The notes under the pieces are model-generated. The model ran no database searches. It was not told the DNA's origin and saw only the letters and a list, made by a program, of their open reading frames with translations. Position numbers and translations under genes: made by a program. DNA of 13,543 bases from a virus. Its lineage: Duplodnaviria; Heunggongvirae; Uroviricota; Caudoviricetes. Positions 1,721 to 13,543 of the stretch are shown one piece after another. Numbering within the stretch: the first letter of the stretch is position 1; each line of letters starts with the position of its first letter. The stretch lies in the IMG/VR virus record IMGVR_UViG_2698536485_000014; one strand, written 5' to 3'.

Positions 1721-1741
1721 CCTGCTAAGTTAATCCCACCA

Positions 1742-1768
1742 GGGGGCCATCACGGCCCCTTTTTATTT
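1742..1768 (+). terminator. Rho-independent terminator after the 1133..1720 gene
   Basis: Stem GGGGCC (1743-1748), loop ATCAC, stem GGCCCC (1754-1759), followed by TTTTTATTT. Confidence 0.6.
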
Positions 1769-1842
1769 GCCTCTTTGAATTACCCCCTATTTACACTCCT
1801 TTCAGTCCTGATCATCACTCCCTACGGTCATGAGCAATTAAC

Positions 1843-1889
1843 CCCTATTTAAGGGGTATTTAATGGGTATTTAATGCCTATTTATTGAT
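1843..1889. repeat. Four tandem 11-bp AT-rich repeats
   Basis: TATTTAA/TATTTAAT/TATTTAAT/TATTTATT begin at 1846, 1857, 1868 and 1879, an exact 11-bp period. The first unit is embedded in the hairpin CCCCTATTTAAGGGG. Confidence 0.5.
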
Positions 1890-1965
1890 TTAATCCGTTT
1901 TATGCCACAACCGCCCGGTTGACAGAGTAAGAGAGAGGGTGTAACCCTTTTTCGTAACACCAATA

Positions 1966-1981
1966 AAATCAATAAGTTAGC
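1966..1981. repeat. 16-bp exact direct repeat, left copy (AAATCAATAAGTTAGC)
   Basis: Identical 16-mer at 1966-1981 and 9620-9635, with 17 of 18 identity when extended. Rough chance expectation for a 16-mer pair in 13.5 kb is about 0.02. Confidence 0.45.
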
Positions 1982-2356
1982 TTAATAAGCCTTTTCTCTA
2001 TTTTTGTCAAATTTAACATACCCTCAAAAACTGCAAAATCTGGCTGCAAGATTATCTGCAGCTGGATTTCTTACACCTCATTTTGTGGTATCACCCTGAC
2101 TAGTTTGTGCATAAAATGAACAGTTTTTAACATTTCCTCTTCACCTGGTAACCACACAAAAAGCTAAAAACGAGGCACAGATAATCTTAGAGGCCTGTTT
2201 TCTTGTTATCACTCTGGAAACGTCGTAGAAGTGATTTTGATGAAAGATGACCTACCCTATTACACCCCCATTTTTTGTTATCACAATTGCATCCTGTGCG
2301 GTATATGGCTGTGTGCTGAAAGCGGTCTTGGGTGTGGGTGTCAGAAATATCCATTA

Positions 2357-2372
2357 GCGGTATTAATACCCG
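2357..2372. promoter_or_regulatory. Isolated palindrome GGTATTAATACC, related to the CGGTA...TACCG family
   Basis: Perfect 12-bp palindrome at 2359-2370 inside GCGGTATTAATACCCG, with the same half-sites as the array at 3300-3490 but a 1-nt shorter centre. Confidence 0.3.
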
Positions 2373-3157
2373 TCAGATGTTCGTCTGAGGTGCCAGGCAG
2401 GCGCTCCCCCACCTCCCTTTTTTCTTCTAACAATTCTCAAATATCACACCACTGCCCACCACGTTGCTATTATGTTAATTCTTAAGCTTTGCTGTATGTT
2501 GTGCACATTATTTATTCAGGTGCATGTACGTAAATTCTGGGCCTCCTTATCATGATTTTTAAATCAGATTTTGTAGTTCGGTTTCTTAGTGTAGATAAGA
2601 TCTATTATGTTAAATGCAATTTTCCCAACCCTTCAAATCAATGACTTACATGTAAGCATGCACTAACACCCCACACAGCACATTAGACGTGTAGATGTCT
2701 ATATCCCACATTTTTGATTGTTTTGTAGTCATTCCCCTGATCATTTAACCAGTATAGTTTGCTCTCTGCAGACCACAAAATCGGAATTTACATCTGATTA
2801 ACATAATCTGTTAGCATGATCACCATTACCCACACAACAATAACCCCATGCAAGCCTCTTTAGGCAATTTATCGGCGTGTTGGTGTGAACAGTCTTTCAT
2901 GTTCTTTATGTATTCATGACTGCAAGGAATGTATTCATTGTCCTGTGTGAGGGAAGGCTGGACTGCTCCAGGGGCCATAGTTATGATGCCCGGTCAACAT
3001 AGCTGTTGATAAAATCAACGGGTGTTGGCCTGCATATTTCCCACACATGAGAGGAAATCAAAGCAAAGAGAGAGGAGAGAGGTTTGCTAGACGATCAGGA
3101 CTATACAGAGTCAAAATCAAGTCACATTAGAGTCAAATCAGATGCAATCAATCCCCC

Positions 3158-3218
3158 ACCTGTTGGGATTTCCCACATGTTCAACCATACACAGGAGCTA
3201 ACCTGTTGGGATTTCCTA
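3158..3218. repeat. Two 18-bp direct repeats (ACCTGTTGGGATTTCCCA / ...CCTA)
   Basis: 3158-3175 and 3201-3218 match at 17 of 18 positions, 43 bp apart. Confidence 0.5.
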
Positions 3219-3235
3219 CACCTCTTGCACATACC

Positions 3236-3490
3236 CCGGAAGATTTTTCCGGTGTCTCCAACCTGTGAAGAATTTTCACACCTGTAAATCCATACAGCAC
3301 GGTAAAAACTACCGCACAACCTGTCAAAATATTTTACTACTCCCTTTAGTCATACCCCTTTCAGTCATACTCAGGCACCACACCCCGGTAAATATTACCG
3401 TACTCAGGCAGATATAAAGGGGCTAACCACGGCAAATATTTCCCTACTACCTCGGTAAATATTTCCGGTGTACCCCGGTAAAAATTACCG
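3236..3490. promoter_or_regulatory. Phased array of 15-bp palindromic sites (iteron/operator-like)
   Basis: CGGTAAAAACTACCG (3300-3314), CGGTAAATATTACCG (3386-3400), degenerate CGGCAAATATTTCCC (3430-3444), CGGTAAATATTTCCGG (3453-3468), CGGTAAAAATTACCG (3476-3490). Related palindromes CCGGAAGATTTTTCCGG (3236-3252) and GTGAAGAATTTTCAC (3265-3279). Centre-to-centre spacings are 86, 44, 23.5 and 22.5 bp, roughly multiples of two helical turns. Confidence 0.55.
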
Positions 3491-3519
3491 CCTAATAGAT
3501 AAAGTAATAGACCACACAA

Positions 3520-4060
3520 TAGATCCCCCCCTAACCCCCAAGGGGAATGGGGAGGGATCAGAGAGTGGGGAAGGTTTTCTAAGGGAAAAGCTTAACCCAC
3601 AAATGAAAGCCTAAAGAGCATGAGCGACTCTTTAGGCAATCTGTGTGTGGGGGGGGTGACAATGTATTCCATACATGACACGTCACCCAATTGTGTGTGG
3701 GAGTGCCTACGGCACCTTAGCCCATGGCTAAGCCCTTCGGGTCTGTGTGGGTCCGGCGAATGCGTCAGCATGAGGCCCACAATGTGGACCGCTGCCGAAA
3801 GCTTGCCAGCGCCGGAAGGAGGCAGCAAAGAGTCTCCCGCGCTCATGTGTGGGCGTATACGTAAGATATACACTCATAAATCGAAAATAAGCCCCCTAAA
3901 TGGCCTTCTGGCTGCATTAACCTGTGTGAGTAGTGAATTGCATTACCTGATGCTTAAATCGCGTTAGAATCGATTTTAGAGCGCTTAAGGCAAAAAGTGC
4001 CCTCCCTTGTGGGCTTGCTTGTGTCTGCTGTGCAGGCTATGGCACCTATAGCACACCTAA
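3520..4060. other. GC-rich, hairpin-dense non-coding segment; candidate structured RNA or protein-binding array
   Basis: No credible ORF. Perfect 10-bp stem GCCTAAAGAG/CTCTTTAGGC (3609-3637); nested hairpin 3654-3688; GTGCC-TAC-GGCAC (3703-3715); CTTAGCC-CAT-GGCTAAG; a C(TTCG)G tetraloop; GAAA loops. Boxes TGTGTGGG at 3643, 3692, 3744 and 3846, with degenerate copies at 3923 and 4007. Confidence 0.3.
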
Positions 4061-4076
4061 ATGATAATAATTCTCA

Positions 4077-4105
4077 TTGACAATTGGTTGACAATATGAT
4101 AAGAT
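4077..4105 (+). promoter_or_regulatory. Possible sigma70 promoter for the small membrane ORF
   Basis: TTGACA (4077-4082), 17-nt spacer, TAAGAT (4100-4105). A second TTGACA at 4088-4093 lacks a good -10. Confidence 0.3.
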
Positions 4106-4140
4106 TATAAATAGGGGGAGAAACAGATCCGGAGGTCAAT

Positions 4141-4290
4141 GTGGAAATTACAGATGCAATAGCGATCATCAACCTGGCTGTACTGTGGTGCGGTGTTGCC
4201 TACATAGCCGGAGTAACTGCAATCGACAATCTTGAAGAAAAAATGATAGATAAATACAAAAAGATTGTTGACAATTTGACGAATGTCTGA
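4141..4290 (+). CDS. Small membrane protein (49 aa, GTG start), hypothetical
   Basis: GGAGG Shine-Dalgarno at 4131-4135, 5 nt before GTG 4141. The product VEITDAIAIINLAVLWCGVAYIAGVTAIDNLEEKMIDKYKKIVDNLTNV contains one predicted transmembrane helix. Not in the ORF track because it is under 60 aa. Confidence 0.3.
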   Translation: MEITDAIAIINLAVLWCGVAYIAGVTAIDNLEEKMIDKYKKIVDNLTNV

Positions 4291-4296
4291 TAAAAT
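4268..4296 (+). promoter_or_regulatory. sigma70-type promoter upstream of the plus-strand gene module
   Basis: TTGACA (4268-4273), 17-nt spacer, TAAAAT (4291-4296). Predicted start near 4303, about 120 nt before ATG 4423. Confidence 0.5.
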
Positions 4297-4422
4297 ATAA
4301 AGCATAGGGTAATTCTCATCATAGTGAATTTCCTTTAGTAGACTGGCGGGGGCTTGTCTTAAGTTCCCGTTTCTTTTTAACCATATATCGCACAGGTTAG
4401 TGAGCTGACAGGAGATTGAATC

Positions 4423-4651: not shown

Positions 4652-5518
4652 ATGGCAAACAACTATGGGGAAAATTTTACTCCCCTTTTTAAACGTTTCA
4701 TCAAATACATTTTTAAAAATCCGATTGCAAAAACTACAACCAATAAAGAAAGATTTCACTTAAATTTGTTGGAAATGGCAATTTACGGTGAAATGGCAAG
4801 TTTCCATTTAAACGGTAAAGAAATATTTATCTCTGAGCAAACCTTAGCAGATGATTATGATGCCACAGAAAAAACAGTAAGGTCGGCTATCAAAACATTA
4901 GAGGCTGCAGGACTAATATTTGTAAAACGGAGCAGAGGTAAGTCTAATCATTACAAACTACTTATTACTCCTGATCAGCTTGGCAAGATGTGTGATGAGC
5001 AGGGTATTAAAACCTCCGCAAGTGTGGGATACAGCAAAGAGGCCTCCGATAATCAACAGGAAGCCCCAAAACAAGCCACACAGCAGCCTGAAAAGCCCGA
5101 GGCAATGCAATCCCCTTCCCAACCTAAAAAAGAACGCAGAGAACGCCGTAGAGACGCTGGCAAACGTGAAATAGATGAGCACGGTTATCCGATTCTGACA
5201 AGCGATGAAATGAATGCTAGATATAAAGTAATTCAGGCCGCATTTAAAGATCAGAAGAGAATTAAATTATCTGAATTGCGTGATACATTTTACGGGCCGG
5301 AGGTGATGGATAAAATTAAAGGCACTATTCCCGATAAAATCTGGAAAGAGAAAGATTATTGGCACCTGACAGAGCAGGCCCTTAAGGTGGCTCAACATGT
5401 GGTTAAAAGAGGCAAAACAATTACCCTTGATTCTATTAGTCATGGCTATGATGCACCGAAAGAAAGATTGTGGAACAACTGCAAGCTTGTAAATGGTGAA
5501 TTGACAATTACAAAATAA
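4652..5518 (+). CDS. Winged-helix DNA-binding protein (289 aa), possible replication initiator or organiser
   Basis: GGGGGA Shine-Dalgarno before ATG 4652; the track ORF 4601..5518 begins at an upstream GTG with no Shine-Dalgarno. N-terminal wHTH-like segment (ISEQTLADDYDATEKTVRSAIKTLEAAGLIFVKRSRGK), a low-complexity Q/P/E/K-rich linker, then a C-terminal domain. Architecture resembles iteron-binding initiators such as lambda O; this is an inference. Confidence 0.6.
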   Translation: MANNYGENFTPLFKRFIKYIFKNPIAKTTTNKERFHLNLLEMAIYGEMASFHLNGKEIFISEQTLADDYDATEKTVRSAIKTLEAAGLIFVKRSRGKSNHYKLLITPDQLGKMCDEQGIKTSASVGYSKEASDNQQEAPKQATQQPEKPEAMQSPSQPKKERRERRRDAGKREIDEHGYPILTSDEMNARYKVIQAAFKDQKRIKLSELRDTFYGPEVMDKIKGTIPDKIWKEKDYWHLTEQALKVAQHVVKRGKTITLDSISHGYDAPKERLWNNCKLVNGELTITK

Positions 5519-6382: not shown

Positions 6383-6826
6383 ATGTCTCAAATCGCTAAA
6401 TTACTATCCCAGGTTATCAAAGCTTTCGACGCTGAAGATTCAAAAGTTCGCCAGGATCTTTTAGATGGCAAGTTTACCAACACCCTGGCATTTACCCGTG
6501 ACAAAGAGCACTTCTTAAAACACAGACACCACGCTTTTGCTGAATGCAAGTCCGCTAATGGTGATGTTTTCTATGTCGATTTGGTGGTTATGGCATGTAG
6601 GCTGTGGATGATTCAGGACCTTATGCGCCAACACGGTGATGATCCTCTTATCAGCATGTGGAACAGCGCCCAGGATGGCTTTGTGATTGCTGCCTTATCC
6701 AAATCAATGATTGAGGCAGAAGGGGCAAGCCTTCAGAACATGGCAGATCTCTTTGAAATAAGCGTAGGAATGATGCAGACCATGCTCCAAGCTGTCAAAC
6801 CTCTCAAACTGGTTAATCTTGATTAA
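6383..6826 (+). CDS. Hypothetical protein (147 aa), predicted mainly helical
   Basis: AAGGA Shine-Dalgarno 7 nt before ATG 6383; the track start 6353 lacks a Shine-Dalgarno and overlaps the operator. Composition is rich in A, L, M, Q, K and E, unlike a beta-rich tail tube protein. Confidence 0.55.
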   Translation: MSQIAKLLSQVIKAFDAEDSKVRQDLLDGKFTNTLAFTRDKEHFLKHRHHAFAECKSANGDVFYVDLVVMACRLWMIQDLMRQHGDDPLISMWNSAQDGFVIAALSKSMIEAEGASLQNMADLFEISVGMMQTMLQAVKPLKLVNLD

Positions 6827-6885
6827 GCTATTGATAAATAAGCACTCCCCATTTTTGGGGGGTGCATCAATGAGAGGATATGCCT

Positions 6886-7269
6886 ATGAATATTGAAGAA
6901 ATGATAGTTGAATTCGAAGAGGGTGATTTCCTGGAAGATGGGGAGTTTAGTTACTCCCATTTTAAACAGGCGTTATTTAGCAGCGATGATAAACCACACG
7001 TTAGTGATCTTAACGACGATGATTTATGTCGTTGGGTGTGCACCCGCTTATATGAGGATGGAAAATATACAGGCCAAAACTTTCCAAATCTCTATTTCAA
7101 AGCACAAACATTTGAGGAAGGGCAAAGAGTGAAAAACCTGGTCGATCAAATGCTGTCAGCCGGATATTTGCATAAAGAATTATTAAATCCTAAAGCTGAA
7201 AGCAAGCGCCATTATATTTTTGTGTGGACTATTGGCGATAAGTGTCCACTAAGACGCAAAGGCAAATGA
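6886..7269 (+). CDS. Hypothetical acidic protein (127 aa)
   Basis: GAGAGGA Shine-Dalgarno 7 nt before ATG 6886. Acidic N-terminus. Second gene upstream of the tape-measure gene. Confidence 0.5.
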   Translation: MNIEEMIVEFEEGDFLEDGEFSYSHFKQALFSSDDKPHVSDLNDDDLCRWVCTRLYEDGKYTGQNFPNLYFKAQTFEEGQRVKNLVDQMLSAGYLHKELLNPKAESKRHYIFVWTIGDKCPLRRKGK

Positions 7270-7508: not shown

Positions 7509-9608
7509 ATGGCAATGAAGGAAGTAGCCAAACTAACAAACGTTATTTACTGGGATTCTGATAAATCCTCCTGGCGAAAAGAAGTTAAACGGCTTGAGGA
7601 TTATAAAAAATCCTGGAAGAAAGCTACCGACGATATAGCTAAAGCGGATTTTAAATCGAATCAGGCTGTGCTCAGAACACAAAGAACACGCGCTAAGGTG
7701 GAAGAGCAGATCGCCAGAGCACAGAAGAAACAACGTGCTCAGGCTGTCAGCCGTCTGACCGGGGGCAATAATCCGGAGCTCTCCTCTATGCGCAAGTTCT
7801 ATCAGCAGCAAGCCAGAGAGGCCGCCAGACAACAAAAACTGTTAGATCGTAGTGTTGGAGATGTTCAGCACAGAAAAGCACGTGTAGGGGCCAACAGTGC
7901 ACGAATCAGCAGCATGTTTGATGGCTCCCTGGTTGCTCAGTTCCAAAGCAGGATCCAGAGAGTTAATGCTGATTATGCTAAAGGGGCTATCAACCTGCAG
8001 GCCTATAATCAGAAAATGGCTCGGCTCAGGGCTGAAATGAAGATGGCAACAGCAGAGGCCGGAAAATTTCAGAGCAGACTGGATAAACTGGCATCAGGTG
8101 CCAGCAAGGTGCATGACAACCTGGGCAAAATCAACTCCACACTAGGCAAGATAGCCATTGGCCTTACTGCCGCTGGCTGGGGTGTTCAGCGTGCTGTTAG
8201 TGGTGCTATGGGTAGCCTTGCAGATCGCAACAGTGCCTACTTCGGTTTGATGGCACAGAACAAGGATGATAAAGCCAAGACTGATCAGCAGATGGCTTTT
8301 ATCAAGAACACAGCCTACACCTATGGGATGGATGAGCGGGAGATGCAAGGGGGCTACATGCGCTTTGCTGCAGCTACTCCCACCATGAAGGAATCTGATA
8401 AGCAGGCTCTTTTTGAGGCTATGGCTATTAAAGGTCGCTCAGTGGGTGCTACTGGCGAGCAACAGAACAGGGCGCTTGTTGCGGTCCAACAAATGGCTTC
8501 AAAGGGAAAAGTTATGGCGGAAGAGCTGCGGGGCCAACTGTCAGAAGCCTTTGCAGGCTCACAACAGGATTTTCAACAGGCCGCTATTGATGCCGGAATC
8601 ATCAAGAATACCCAGGAATTCGATAAAGCCCTTAAAGATGGCAAAATCACCCTGGATAAGCTACTCCCTTCTTTGGTGAAAATCTGGTCTGCAGCCAAGA
8701 ATACGAAAGCCTTTGCTGAATCCATGAAACAGCCAGAAGTAGCAATGCAGCGCATGAAAAACAGCTTTAACGAGCTGGCGATTCAGTTTATGGGTGTTGT
8801 GGATCCTGCGGATGGCGTTATTAGCTTATCTGAATCTCTGATCTCCATCTTTGAAGACCTCACCACTGATATGGACGGCAGCGGGAGCGCGGCAAAACAG
8901 TTCGGTGAGGCAGTCGGGGCTGCCATGCGTGAGATCATGTATTGGGTAGGCTTCGCTAAGGGATATATTGAGGTCAAGGCTAAAGAGTTCGGCATGACCG
9001 GATCAGAGGTTGGCGAGCTTATCGGAAAATTGGTAGTCGGCTTAGCTGGTCTGAAAGTTATTACTACACTGCTTTCCCCTCTAACCGGATTTGTTTCACT
9101 TGTCACCCAACTGATAGCTTTGTTAGGTAAAATCCCTGGTATGAGCAAGCTTCTGGCTTCTGCCTCAGGTGGAACGGCAACAGGAGCAGCGGTCATCAGT
9201 GCAGGCTCTAACGCTGAAAGAAGTTTCATTGATGGCAAGACGCAGGAAATGAGTAAGGAGAACTCAAAACAGGGTGCTTTGTTTGAGCTGGGAAGATTTG
9301 TTAGCAATGCTGGCGCACTGTTCACACCTGGCGGTGATACTGGTCCTTTGTTCGATCAGGTCAGAGGCTGGTTTAATAAAGGGCCAACATTGACAGTAGA
9401 CACTGGCATCAGACCTACACCAACAGGCGGCATAGCTATCCAGAATGGTGGATATCAACCAGTCCAAGTAAATGTAGCCCCACAAGGTGAGATTTCCGGC
9501 AAATGGGAGATAACCATTGATGAGGGTGGAATTGCCAGGGTGATCCAGAAGGAAGTCAGCGATCAGTTGGATTGGAAAGCCACACAGGAATCTAACCAGC
9601 TTTTCTAA
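7509..9608 (+). CDS. Tail tape-measure-domain protein (699 aa)
   Basis: GGTGAGG Shine-Dalgarno 6 nt before ATG 7509; the track start 7497 is a GTG. Coiled-coil, Q/R/K-rich N-terminus. Central segment ...QQMASKGKVMAEELRGQLSEAFAGS...KALKDGKITLDKLLPSL... matches my recollection of the conserved tape-measure domain motif. Hydrophobic segments (LIGKLVVGLAGLKVITTLLSPLTGFVSLVTQLIALLG) and a Gly-rich C-terminus are also typical. Confidence 0.6.
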   Translation: MAMKEVAKLTNVIYWDSDKSSWRKEVKRLEDYKKSWKKATDDIAKADFKSNQAVLRTQRTRAKVEEQIARAQKKQRAQAVSRLTGGNNPELSSMRKFYQQQAREAARQQKLLDRSVGDVQHRKARVGANSARISSMFDGSLVAQFQSRIQRVNADYAKGAINLQAYNQKMARLRAEMKMATAEAGKFQSRLDKLASGASKVHDNLGKINSTLGKIAIGLTAAGWGVQRAVSGAMGSLADRNSAYFGLMAQNKDDKAKTDQQMAFIKNTAYTYGMDEREMQGGYMRFAAATPTMKESDKQALFEAMAIKGRSVGATGEQQNRALVAVQQMASKGKVMAEELRGQLSEAFAGSQQDFQQAAIDAGIIKNTQEFDKALKDGKITLDKLLPSLVKIWSAAKNTKAFAESMKQPEVAMQRMKNSFNELAIQFMGVVDPADGVISLSESLISIFEDLTTDMDGSGSAAKQFGEAVGAAMREIMYWVGFAKGYIEVKAKEFGMTGSEVGELIGKLVVGLAGLKVITTLLSPLTGFVSLVTQLIALLGKIPGMSKLLASASGGTATGAAVISAGSNAERSFIDGKTQEMSKENSKQGALFELGRFVSNAGALFTPGGDTGPLFDQVRGWFNKGPTLTVDTGIRPTPTGGIAIQNGGYQPVQVNVAPQGEISGKWEITIDEGGIARVIQKEVSDQLDWKATQESNQLF

Positions 9609-9619
9609 TATTGTGATCT

Positions 9620-9635
9620 AAATCAATAAGTTAGC
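9620..9635. repeat. 16-bp exact direct repeat, right copy (AAATCAATAAGTTAGC)
   Basis: Identical to 1966-1981; lies 12 nt after the tape-measure stop codon. Confidence 0.45.
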
Positions 9636-9655
9636 CTGACCGGATAAACTCCAGG

Positions 9656-9690
9656 CAAGAAAAAAGCCCCTAAGTGTTAACAAAGGGGCT
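9656..9690 (-). terminator. Rho-independent terminator on the minus strand
   Basis: Stem AGCCCCT (9665-9671) pairs with AGGGGCT (9684-9690) around a 12-nt loop. On the minus strand the stem is followed by TTTTTCTTG. On the plus strand no T-run follows. Confidence 0.45.
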
Positions 9691-9719
9691 CTTCTCCGGT
9701 ATCCTTTTGATGCGGGGCG

Positions 9720-9767
9720 AACCTGCTAACAAAAATCAACCTCTCGCGAGACTAATGTTAGCAGGTT
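9720..9767. repeat. 12-bp perfect inverted repeat with 24-nt loop
   Basis: AACCTGCTAACA (9720-9731) pairs with TGTTAGCAGGTT (9756-9767). The loop contains the palindrome TCTCGCGAGA and a degenerate copy of the leader box (TCAACCTCTCGCGAG). Confidence 0.5.
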
Positions 9768-10108
9768 GCCGGAAGGTAAGTCAACTCCGGCCTATAAACC
9801 TTAAAGCGACTATAAAATCGCCCCGCCAATTGTGATGATCCGACCTTTGAGGCGGGTCCGGTGCCCAGGGGGTGCAGTGATGCACAAACCAGGCAACGAT
9901 AAACAGGCTAACAGTGATAGCGGCGCTCAATCAGCGCACTAAATCCTAACCAGTCCGGGAAAGAGGCTGGCTCTATCGACCGCTCATGCACGGGACAATG
10001 CATACCTGATAAAGGATTCTCACAAGGGACCAATCGCGAGAAAAGAAGTGGAAAGGGGCTGATTTGTGGTGTATCACTACGGCCTCAAAAGAACACTATT
10101 ACCTTTTT

Positions 10109-13318: not shown

Positions 13319-13356
13319 TTGATCACCTGCGATTTAAATTAACTCCCCTCAAAGAG

Positions 13357-13473
13357 TTCCGGCATAACCTCTAAAACCACGACAGGATCGGGCCGAAAAG
13401 TTATGCCGGAAATCTAAAGGGAAATTGATACAAGGAGAGGGAGATAGCCCCGCACCGTCCAAGCGGGGGCTAT
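13357..13473. repeat. Two strong hairpins in the leader upstream of the decoration gene
   Basis: 12-bp perfect inverted repeat TTCCGGCATAAC (13357-13368) / GTTATGCCGGAA (13400-13411) with a 31-nt loop. Second hairpin ATAGCCCCGC (13444-13453) / GCGGGGGCTAT (13463-13473) with one bulged base. Confidence 0.4.
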
Positions 13474-13543
13474 TCCACATGGGGAAACCGACAACAGTCG
13501 GATGATAGTTCACAGTATTACGGTTACTAGAGAGCACTATCAC

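Follow-up and report, generated by a model that had tools for sequence, protein, structure and literature searches.

What is a stretch of about 2.65 kb without genes doing in DNA that otherwise looks like that of a phage? The question was raised by IMG/VR record IMGVR_UViG_2698536485_000014 (Caudoviricetes), whose whole 13,543 bp are here called the window, and in which the original prediction, made from the letters alone, had marked positions 1770-4420 as gene-free and proposed an origin, a partition, packaging or regulatory hub, or a long noncoding RNA locus. The window covers a circular element once in full, and in the relative L026 its ends adjoin each other. Its phage-like character, also claimed earlier, was borne out by family scans of the Pfam and PHROG type, which recognised a major capsid protein, a tape measure, a Dit-like protein, a tail-completion protein and an initiator, Rep, resembling lambda O. 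The gap was aligned across 20 and later about 25 related circular E. coli elements of about 13.5 kb. The analysis places the gene-free stretch at 1721-4140 (2.4 kb; the upstream 195-aa gene stops at 1720), and this stretch is probably a non-coding, cis-acting replication and control hub of a circular plasmid-borne element of about 13.5 kb that resembles a satellite of rV5-type phages.

That 1721-4140 is non-coding follows from open reading frame (ORF) lengths at chance level, a lack of codon periodicity, the lack of any conserved small ORF and the lack of genes called in the relatives. The longest ORF in this stretch has 115 aa, compared with 96 +/- 20 aa in dinucleotide shuffles, 16% of which equal or exceed the observed length. 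All six frames of 2000-3080 contain 14-24 stops each, and the substitutions among relatives in the same segment fall on the three phases as 47/51/42, showing no 3-base periodicity. Among 43 small ORFs tested, only 4141-4290 is intact in relatives and biased toward third-position changes (6/7/38 by codon position). Related plasmids annotated by NCBI (9) and further contigs with gene calls (12) show the same gap, with one exception, a 54-aa call in one contig. A conserved ORF with codon-level constraint over most of the interval was looked for and not found in 1721-4140. A protein gene hidden by recoding, i.e., read through frameshifts and stop read-through, has a negligible probability: nothing beyond the unusual size of the gap speaks for it, and it is contradicted by the stops and the missing periodicity in 2000-3080, by the single-nucleotide indels tolerated in relatives and by hosts that are ordinary E. 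coli. The claim of a gene-free interval thus stood for 1721-4140, where no coding signal was found, and fell for 4141-4290, which is a real gene, so that the limits shift slightly; the accompanying statement that the ORFs lack Shine-Dalgarno sequences likewise fails there, since GGAGG lies 5 nt ahead of the GTG start.

The function best supported within this stretch is that of a putative iteron-type replication origin at 3150-3560, where dyad-symmetric iterons are followed by an AT-rich stretch and then by GC-rich hairpins (Table 1). The CGGYAAAWATTWCCS pattern gave 11 matches (both strands of six sites) versus 0.34 expected, all within 3237-3490, and the tandem cluster consists of the three dyads closest to the conserved CTAATAGATAAAGTAATAGACCACACAATAGATC. 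The AT-rich stretch persists beside the iterons in all elements, whatever their iteron type, and in our own reading its (A/G)TCTATT repeats resemble the oriC 13-mer GATCTnTTnTTTT (9/11, 9/11 and 6/11). The hairpin region after it is 66% G+C, and its third hairpin, at 3609-3637, reads as a minus-strand intrinsic terminator whose loop differs in the relative L009 with the stem kept. A motif resembling the rV5 late promoter, TGGTAAAATA, was considered as the source of the iterons and was rejected because it is not enriched.

The comparison of relatives connects this region to the initiator. About seven iteron-cluster types occur in 22 elements, and the type follows the cluster to which the first 130 residues of Rep belong; the correspondence is one-to-one in 18/22 elements, irrespective of the Rep C-terminal type, and for the ACCTGTTGGAATTTCCCACA iteron type the agreement of the Rep N-terminus extends across three C-terminal types. 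This co-variation suggests that Rep reads the iterons. In L014 and L018, a second, related N-terminal cluster uses the iterons of another cluster, and L008 has variant iterons within its own Rep cluster. In L006 and L016, Rep is unrelated (with a MarR-family annotation in L006) and is accompanied by an insert of about 560 nt after about 3585 that has its own direct repeats, the old iterons being kept; this is a replicon-module swap. A search of solved structures with Rep returned only weak winged-helix regulators. The original suggestion of an origin is thus strongly supported by the tandem iterons beside an AT-rich stretch and by the co-variation of iterons with the Rep N-terminus, and the origin follows the known logic of lambda O and of RepA of PLE, a satellite of a lytic myovirus. 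Ahead of the cognate cluster lie iterons of other specificities; three of these types form the origin-proximal cluster in elements with a different Rep type, and each element keeps one or two such upstream copies cognate to other elements. These foreign iterons may represent history, cross-talk or decoys. In the divergent satellite lineage L023, an extra stand-alone protein of 128 aa resembling the Rep N-terminus is encoded at 6514-6900 ahead of the full Rep, and it might interfere with the origins of rival elements.

The alignment divides the gap into modules with different modes of evolution. Despite many indels, the left edge (1770-1990) always retains an 11-bp-periodic set of 3-5 SSTATTTA boxes and, after it, a hairpin; 3100-3500 is highly variable (56-99% identity to the window), 3500-3640 is conserved and strongly folding, 3640-4070 is variable, and 4071-4420, with the promoters and the small gene, is conserved. 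The block of about 1.1 kb at 1994-3074 is present at the same length in all of the roughly 25 elements, with just three indels of 1 nt and one 21-nt slip indel, while the neighbouring segments turn over. It diverges from the window by 2-5%, which is about half the divergence at four-fold degenerate sites of backbone genes and above that at codon positions 1+2. Its longest runs of invariant sequence in 19 elements lie at 2481-2519, 2586-2618, 2148-2175, 2550-2577 and 2419-2445, and further long ones at 2797-2822, 2332-2357, 3031-3053 and 2036-2058. The most invariant islands comprise CCCACACA boxes oriented toward the origin, short words common to the ORF-free region of phage rV5 and a putative Xer core resembling dif/cer, the most constrained of them; all are treated below. 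The block would consist of DNA sites for protein binding and be neither a gene nor a folded RNA.

It is very unlikely that the interval, the origin aside, is mostly non-functional and consists of decayed genes and selfish palindromes that are tolerated without size pressure. Such an explanation would suit the hairpin cassettes of the right arm, which vary in number and order and occur elsewhere in intergenic DNA, the indel-rich left edge and right arm, and an element of which one third is non-coding; the family is also young, so that conservation alone is weak evidence. However, the constant length of the block beside neighbours that turn over and its halved divergence rate speak against decay, as does the coincidence of the invariant islands with recognisable motifs, which would be unlikely for decaying sequence. 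The ORF fragments that were tested held no trace of protein homology.

The best dif-like site of the window lies in this block, at 2588-2615. When compared with E. coli dif, the sequence of which was taken from the literature (e.g., PMC3025954), its right (XerD) arm matches at 11/11 and its left (XerC) arm at 7/11 positions around a 6-bp centre, and this score of 18/22 was reached by 0/60 shuffles. Besides the weaker inverted site listed in Table 1, another weaker dif-like site occurs at 2451. Scored in the same way against dif, the sites cer and psi reach about 19/22. Across 185,579 species-representative genomes, the site's 22-mer GATAAGATCTATTATGTTAAAT has one exact match, which lies in a Phycisphaerales metagenome-assembled genome unrelated to the element (L030 7888-7909); the chance expectation for this match was estimated at about 0.07, and its left arm fits what we take to be the general dif consensus. 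The match lends weak support to the Xer reading. By eye, it adjoins what appears to be the 3' end of a tRNA gene. Plasmid Xer sites have some 180 bp of accessory sequence with ArgR or ArcA and PepA sites on the side of the XerC arm; an inspection by eye alone identified no accessory sequences, no PepA site and no convincing ArgR (ARG) or ArcA box near the dif-like site. The site, invariant in 19 elements, may be a XerC/XerD site that would serve plasmid multimer resolution.

The CCCACACA 8-mer is present in 11 copies in the window versus 0.39 expected, 9/11 of them in non-coding DNA. The boxes aim at the origin from both sides, the right ones in 50-bp steps. The left positions are kept in relatives, and one to four right boxes are kept despite the turnover of the sequence around them. 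The contexts of the left boxes, 11-12 nt long, are identical to sites in the rV5 ORF-free region. The boxes would bind a factor of host, helper or element origin. Two interpretations were rejected: a motif of rV5 phages at large, given the lack of enrichment in about 29 kb of rV5-like coding DNA, and KOPS-like boxes for a phage FtsK, given that the small 'FtsK' ORF beside the ORF-free region of pangalan has no Pfam support.

To the right of the origin, the boxes are embedded in hairpin cassettes, which from one element to another vary in count and arrangement (e.g., a-b-d, c-a-b-d, b-a-d or a-e). In five variants of the three-hairpin cassette, 12/12 tested pairs hold, 6 of them via changes on both sides, and tandem hairpins exceed the numbers in shuffles (6 versus 0.1 in L009; 5 versus 0.03 in L014). 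We read the cassettes as small palindromic repeat elements that would recombine at their TGTGTGGG borders and could act as RNA or as DNA; they might serve the hub, e.g., by providing terminators or RNA ends. No Y1 transposase (RAYT, TnpA or IS200/IS605-type) was recognised among the proteins of the element; a host-encoded enzyme is possible.

These hairpins bear on the alternative that the interval or the block encodes a long structured noncoding RNA, or several small regulatory RNAs controlling the satellite or its helper. The non-coding region of PLE is the source of the small RNA SviR, and several properties of the gap would fit an RNA: the base skews of 1800-3600 resemble a leftward-running sense strand, the minus-strand terminator at 3609-3637 is clean and keeps its stem while the L009 loop changes, the cassettes show compensatory changes and UUCG-type loops typical of RNA, 3512-3649 folds far better than shuffles, and a hairpin with a T run lies about 70 nt downstream of promoter P2. 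However, 3512-3649 folds equally well on both strands, as DNA palindromes do, and the stem changes of the cassettes are all Watson-Crick on both sides, with no G-U intermediates. In 2000-3000, the folding z-score averages -0.30 on the plus and -0.04 on the minus strand; the structure predicted on a 20-sequence alignment has 5 compensated versus 36 broken pairs; no promoter in or beside the block exceeds 9/12. Rfam returned no family at gathering score and a single chance-level hit (E = 0.67) at a lax threshold, and a tRNA scan of the interval returned nothing. An RNA gene is thus unlikely, and the long noncoding RNA of the original prediction finds no support in the block. The alignment check that had been recommended for conservation and covariation gave a divided answer, since the block is 92-98% identical and the right-arm hairpins are compensated, whereas the pairs predicted in the block are mostly broken.

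The regulatory hub, in turn, is supported at the level of sequence by two near-consensus promoters at the right edge, by repeated TTGACAAT words and by a leader hairpin. P1 and P2 match sigma-70 promoters at close to consensus, and an inverted SSTATTTA copy lies at 4108, just past the -10 of P1. The SSTATTTA array at the left edge may be bound by a regulator or by a centromere-like protein. The hairpin that follows it (1882-1975) exists among relatives as two sequence variants, each of which retains the hairpin and then a T run. The leader hairpin at 4345-4371 is a possible attenuator, and this segment is included in the DNA that an rV5-like phage contig has captured. By eye, AATGATAATAATTCTCATT at 4058-4082, which overlaps the -35 of P1, resembles a Fur box, and a related word, ATAATAATTCTCA, occurs in the rV5 ORF-free region. 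A 22-nt inverted repeat that seemed to bracket the gap (1783/4097) was discarded, being at the level of chance pairs and not conserved in its left copy.

The right edge also contains the 49-codon gene, whose product recurs unchanged in 1657 indexed blocks of public assemblies, for the most part on contigs of 10-20 kb. No family match was found for the protein. With its 23-residue hydrophobic stretch, it falls within the size of type I toxins (<60 aa); for an antisense promoter, just a weak 9/12 match was found on the minus strand, at 4271-4243. This gene, the dif-like site and the motifs shared with rV5 are additions to the original prediction, which held none of the three.

Table 1. Positions, strands and supporting evidence of the features in and beside the gene-free stretch
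Feature	Position	Strand	Evidence
Intrinsic terminator of the 195-aa gene, left limit of the gap	1741-1761	+	8-bp GC-rich stem then T run; kept in all relatives
SSTATTTA array	1786 plus 1844, 1855, 1866, 1877 (11-bp period); within 1786-1884	+	Tandem Repeats Finder: period 11, 3.5 copies
Long imperfect hairpin with small hairpin and T run (about 1936-1956)	1882-1975		folding z = -3.7
Conserved non-coding block of about 1.1 kb with islands of invariant sequence	1994-3074		92-98% identical in most of 19-22 elements
dif/cer-like Xer core, AGTGTAGATAA-GATCTA-TTATGTTAAAT	2588-2615	+	33-nt run (2586-2618) invariant in 19 elements
Left CCCACACA boxes	2670, 2829, 3040; CCCACAT at 2705, 3172 (span 2670-3177)	+	all aimed at the origin
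Weaker inverted dif-like site, GGTGATCATGC-TAACAGA-TTATGTTAATC	2796-2825	-	16/22 to dif, 7-bp centre; overlaps invariant run 2797-2822
Single or double iteron-like dyads of other specificities	3158, 3201, 3237, 3259, 3300, 3317, 3386 (3158-3400)		dyad-symmetric; three types cognate to other Rep types
Cognate iteron cluster, three CGGYAAAWATTWCCS dyads at 23-nt spacing	3430, 3453, 3476 (3430-3490)		tandem repeat period 23
AT-rich stretch, candidate DNA-unwinding element	3492-3525	-	71% A+T; three (A/G)TCTATT repeats 12-13 nt apart
GC-rich three-hairpin domain closed by CCACACA/TGTGTGG	3512-3649		folding z -5.3 plus, -5.4 minus strand
Right arm, hairpin cassettes bounded by TGTGTGGG	3640-3870; boxes 3644, 3694, 3744, 3846	+	TGTGTGGG = CCCACACA on the minus strand
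Promoter P1, TTGACA-17-TAAGAT, TG before -10, repeated TTGACAAT words	4077-4105	+	10/12 match; region 97% conserved
49-codon hydrophobic-peptide gene, VEITDAIAIINLAVLWCGVAYIAGVTAIDNLEEKMIDKYKKIVDNLTNV	4141-4290	+	Shine-Dalgarno; intact in 19/19 relatives
Promoter P2, TTGACA-17-TAAAAT, TG before -10, heading the 71-aa gene and the rep operon	4268-4296	+	11/12 match
Leader hairpin and T run between P2 and the 71-aa gene	4345-4371	+	12-pair stem
Rep, lambda O-like initiator with winged-helix N-terminal domain	4652-5518	+	Pfam HTH_36; PHROG replication-initiation and O-like families

The element that carries this hub looks like a member of an apparently undescribed family of plasmid-borne phage satellites of E. 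coli. Near-identical plasmid units of 13.2-13.7 kb were found in 7/5426 complete E. coli genomes, and no chromosomal copy was found among these genomes. The family scans recognised no terminase, portal or integrase among the proteins of the element. The putative satellite assignment draws on the missing terminase and portal and on DNA exchanged with an rV5-like phage, which would be consistent with transfer that depends on a helper. To the left of the gap, an 86-aa helix-turn-helix protein is followed by the variable 195-aa protein; to its right come the 49-aa peptide, a 71-aa protein, the O-like Rep, several small proteins without assignment and the tape measure, and the tail-completion, Dit-like, major capsid and 111-aa protein genes lie on the opposite strand. 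The coding share of the element is 66%. Defence-system models gave nothing significant for its unassigned proteins. Relatives of the capsid protein were found in neither the viral nor the species-representative genome collections, and a protein index held only proteins at least 82% identical. Near and distant DNA searches for the interval or the block in phages, plasmids and E. coli genomes returned nothing outside the element family, and a literature search found no published description of these plasmids. Longer records exist, namely a 39.6 kb trimer (L003, p3RM10740), whose copies are non-identical and have some genes truncated in one copy, a 26.7 kb dimer contig (L015) and a 79 kb contig (L013); such multimers may be genuine concatemers or assembly artefacts.

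Several other parts of the element deserve mention. A 30 kb contig (L011, GCA_002463705.1) carries a resistance transposon at 13452-21041, between the tail-completion and tape measure genes, with aminoglycoside phosphotransferase genes, a DDE transposase and TetR; the element can therefore carry antibiotic resistance. This insertion lies in or near 9609-10108, the segment between the convergent tape measure and tail-completion genes. With about 98% of its positions invariant, this segment is better conserved than any other part of the element; it also shows strong folding at 9681-9840 (z as low as -5) and is a candidate cis site, e.g., for packaging. A second non-coding region of about 1 kb (13320-13543 and 1-815) includes a perfect DnaA box on the minus strand at 103-111, segments that fold strongly (z as low as -7) and, at 73/103 and 641/693, two inverted pairs of CCCACACA/TGTGTGG. 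The gene at 1133-1720 is a hot spot at which dissimilar alleles of 173, 195, 225 and 236 aa swap between elements, and no family match was found for any of them.

The helper would be a phage of the rV5 type, and four mutually independent observations point to Vequintavirus. The tape measure is about 27% identical to its counterparts in Vequintavirus (Vequintavirinae), and the best phage match of the capsid protein is that of Serratia phage Kashira (about 145 kb; 23% identity). Direct exchange is seen in a metagenomic rV5-like contig, L024 (also L025), which is 96-98% identical to phages APECc02 and V18 and contains, at 8181-9575, a 1.4 kb insert from the satellite family with two truncated Rep N-terminal domains. 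The insert comprises the 3' end of the 49-aa gene, P2, the leader, a 69-aa gene and then the Rep-domain ORFs, one being a 121-aa stand-alone domain of a new type and the other the first 197 residues of an L026-type Rep at 99% identity. No insert of this type was found in deposited phages. It could be an anti-satellite device like Odn of phage ICP1, or a recombination accident.

rV5 has its own ORF-free region of 2.6 kb (PMC3606486), and a region of this type is conserved and mostly unannotated in 122 records. It contains a dif-like site both arms of which equal those of E. coli dif (L028 2643-2670, i.e., 105142-105169 of the record; also in pangalan, L029, at about 2649-2676), with TAGGTA or TGGGTA as the centre, and a literature search found no published report of a perfect-arm dif site in lytic rV5. 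The region also has four CCCACACA boxes, about ten CTGTT(T/C)AC repeats that look like a phage origin, and a three-hairpin cassette; Rfam found nothing in it. The gap and this region share 11-mers at 32 positions versus 4.6 +/- 2.7 in shuffles, and 12-mers at 17 versus 1.3. The likeness appears to be one of shared vocabulary and not of common descent of the whole region. Since the same signals recur in the rV5-like region, satellite and helper seem to use the same factors.

The shared words, together with an element that lacks a terminase of its own, also prompt the alternative that the block is a pac or cos signal for the terminase of the helper. The dimer, trimer and longer records could be packaging substrates, and two Vequintavirus records begin or end within their own ORF-free region. 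However, these two ends lie at different places and are probably arbitrary, there is no known terminase-binding site of an rV5-like phage for comparison, and the shared words include the dif-like site and the origin-oriented boxes, which point to replication and resolution rather than to packaging. Moreover, 9609-10108 and 13320-815 are equally good candidates. Packaging is a reading with little probability.

Against the reading of the gap as a replication and control hub, several points must be weighed. Rep binding, the firing of the origin and Xer recombination are all inferred. No DnaA box was found near the iterons, which is nonetheless compatible with a lambda-type origin and hence uninformative. 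The XerC arm of the dif-like site matches at only 7/11, four words resembling the XerD arm occur in the block and could mean a different binding protein, and the dif search followed the sighting of the repeated word ATTATGTTAA, which makes the shuffle statistic post hoc. A profile of the block gave no hit to the rV5 region, with which it has only short words in common and no alignable homology; one coding segment of APECc02 also shares many words with the gap, and the CCCACACA box is no more frequent than expected in rV5-like coding DNA. The cassettes also occur at other intergenic spots, flanked by TGTGG, and may be selfish passengers. The conservation of the block partly reflects a young, recombining family, and in L023 the segment 2240-3254 is about 98% identical while the genes are about 82% identical, which looks like a recent recombination tract.

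In the mechanism proposed for the hub, Rep dimers would bind the tandem iterons, melt the AT-rich stretch and start theta replication, in the manner of lambda O and PLE RepA. At the dif-like site, XerCD would resolve multimers, the plasmid lacking partition genes; regulators would bind to the CCCACACA boxes and to the SSTATTTA array, and P1 and P2 would drive the peptide gene and the rep operon. The right arm would have gathered palindromic hairpin cassettes, and satellite and presumed helper would draw on the same factors. The Rep domains captured by a phage would then suggest a conflict centred on the origin, as that of ICP1 Odn with the PLE origin (PMC8263062). A joint reading, in which the hub is a functional copy of the helper's gene-free origin region and plugs into the same host or helper factors through a dif-like site, origin-oriented CCCACACA boxes and hairpin triplets, Rep N-termini and iterons diversify in an arms race in which captured Rep domains let the phage block the origin of the satellite, and the stray iterons act as decoys or as sites of cross-talk among rival satellites, is offered tentatively and is more doubtful. 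If true, it would be a second, independent conflict of the PLE/ICP1 style, in E. coli, with a plasmid-borne satellite that has its own capsid and tail genes.

As far as could be found, no description exists of a hub this large, of a conserved block bearing a dif-like site, of boxes directed at the origin, of stray iterons with foreign specificity or of signals that recur in the gene-free region of the presumed helper. If the hub reading holds, the interval would be the control centre of an apparently undescribed satellite family that is common in public assemblies and seems linked to lytic phages of the rV5 type, a group with uses in biocontrol and therapy. Given the exchange of initiators and iterons and the capture of Rep domains by a phage, the idea of an arms race could then be tested in a host that is far easier to handle than Vibrio cholerae, and the shared dif-like site and CCCACACA boxes would provide a first handle on the 2.6 kb gene-free region of about 120 Vequintavirus genomes.

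Lambda ori consists of dyad-symmetric tandem iterons of about 18 bp beside an AT-rich stretch, which are bound by the N-terminal domain of O. The satellite has the same arrangement of tandem dyads beside an AT-rich stretch, and its initiator matches the O-like families of PHROG. However, lambda ori lies inside the O gene, whereas in the satellite about 1.1 kb separates the iterons from rep downstream; a helicase loader of the P type was not recognised in the satellite, and its cognate cluster is accompanied by foreign single iterons. The dif-like site agrees with dif, cer and psi in its 11-6-11 layout, in a XerD arm identical to that of dif and in its presence on a small plasmid for which multimer resolution would be useful; it differs in the XerC arm (7/11) and in the two weaker sites nearby, one of them inverted. 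The cassettes are comparable to the REP/BIME-type palindromic repeats of enterobacteria, being short, stable, repeated intergenic hairpins of variable number and order with compensatory stems, but their sequences differ from those of E. coli REP, and they come as fixed triplets bounded by TGTG(T)GGG.

The closest likenesses are with the presumed helper and with PLE. The rV5 region resembles the gap in size, in the order of dif-like site, CCCACACA boxes, iteron-like repeats and three-hairpin cassette, and in many words of 11-14 nt; its repeats, however, are CTGTT(T/C)AC and not the dyads of the satellite, and its dif-like site is oriented oppositely with respect to the repeats. PLE, as the satellite of the lytic myovirus ICP1, likewise has its origin in a non-coding region with a few semi-palindromic iterons, which change between variants together with the N-terminal domain of the initiator, and the helper lineage has acquired the DNA-binding domain of the satellite initiator, as Odn in ICP1 and as the insert of L024 here (PMC8263062). 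In contrast, the initiator of the present satellite is an O-like winged-helix protein (HTH_36) and that of PLE is a RepA_N protein; the element is a free plasmid and PLE an integrated island, and the non-coding region of the satellite is much larger and contains extra modules. The domains captured in L024 also carry no nuclease domain.

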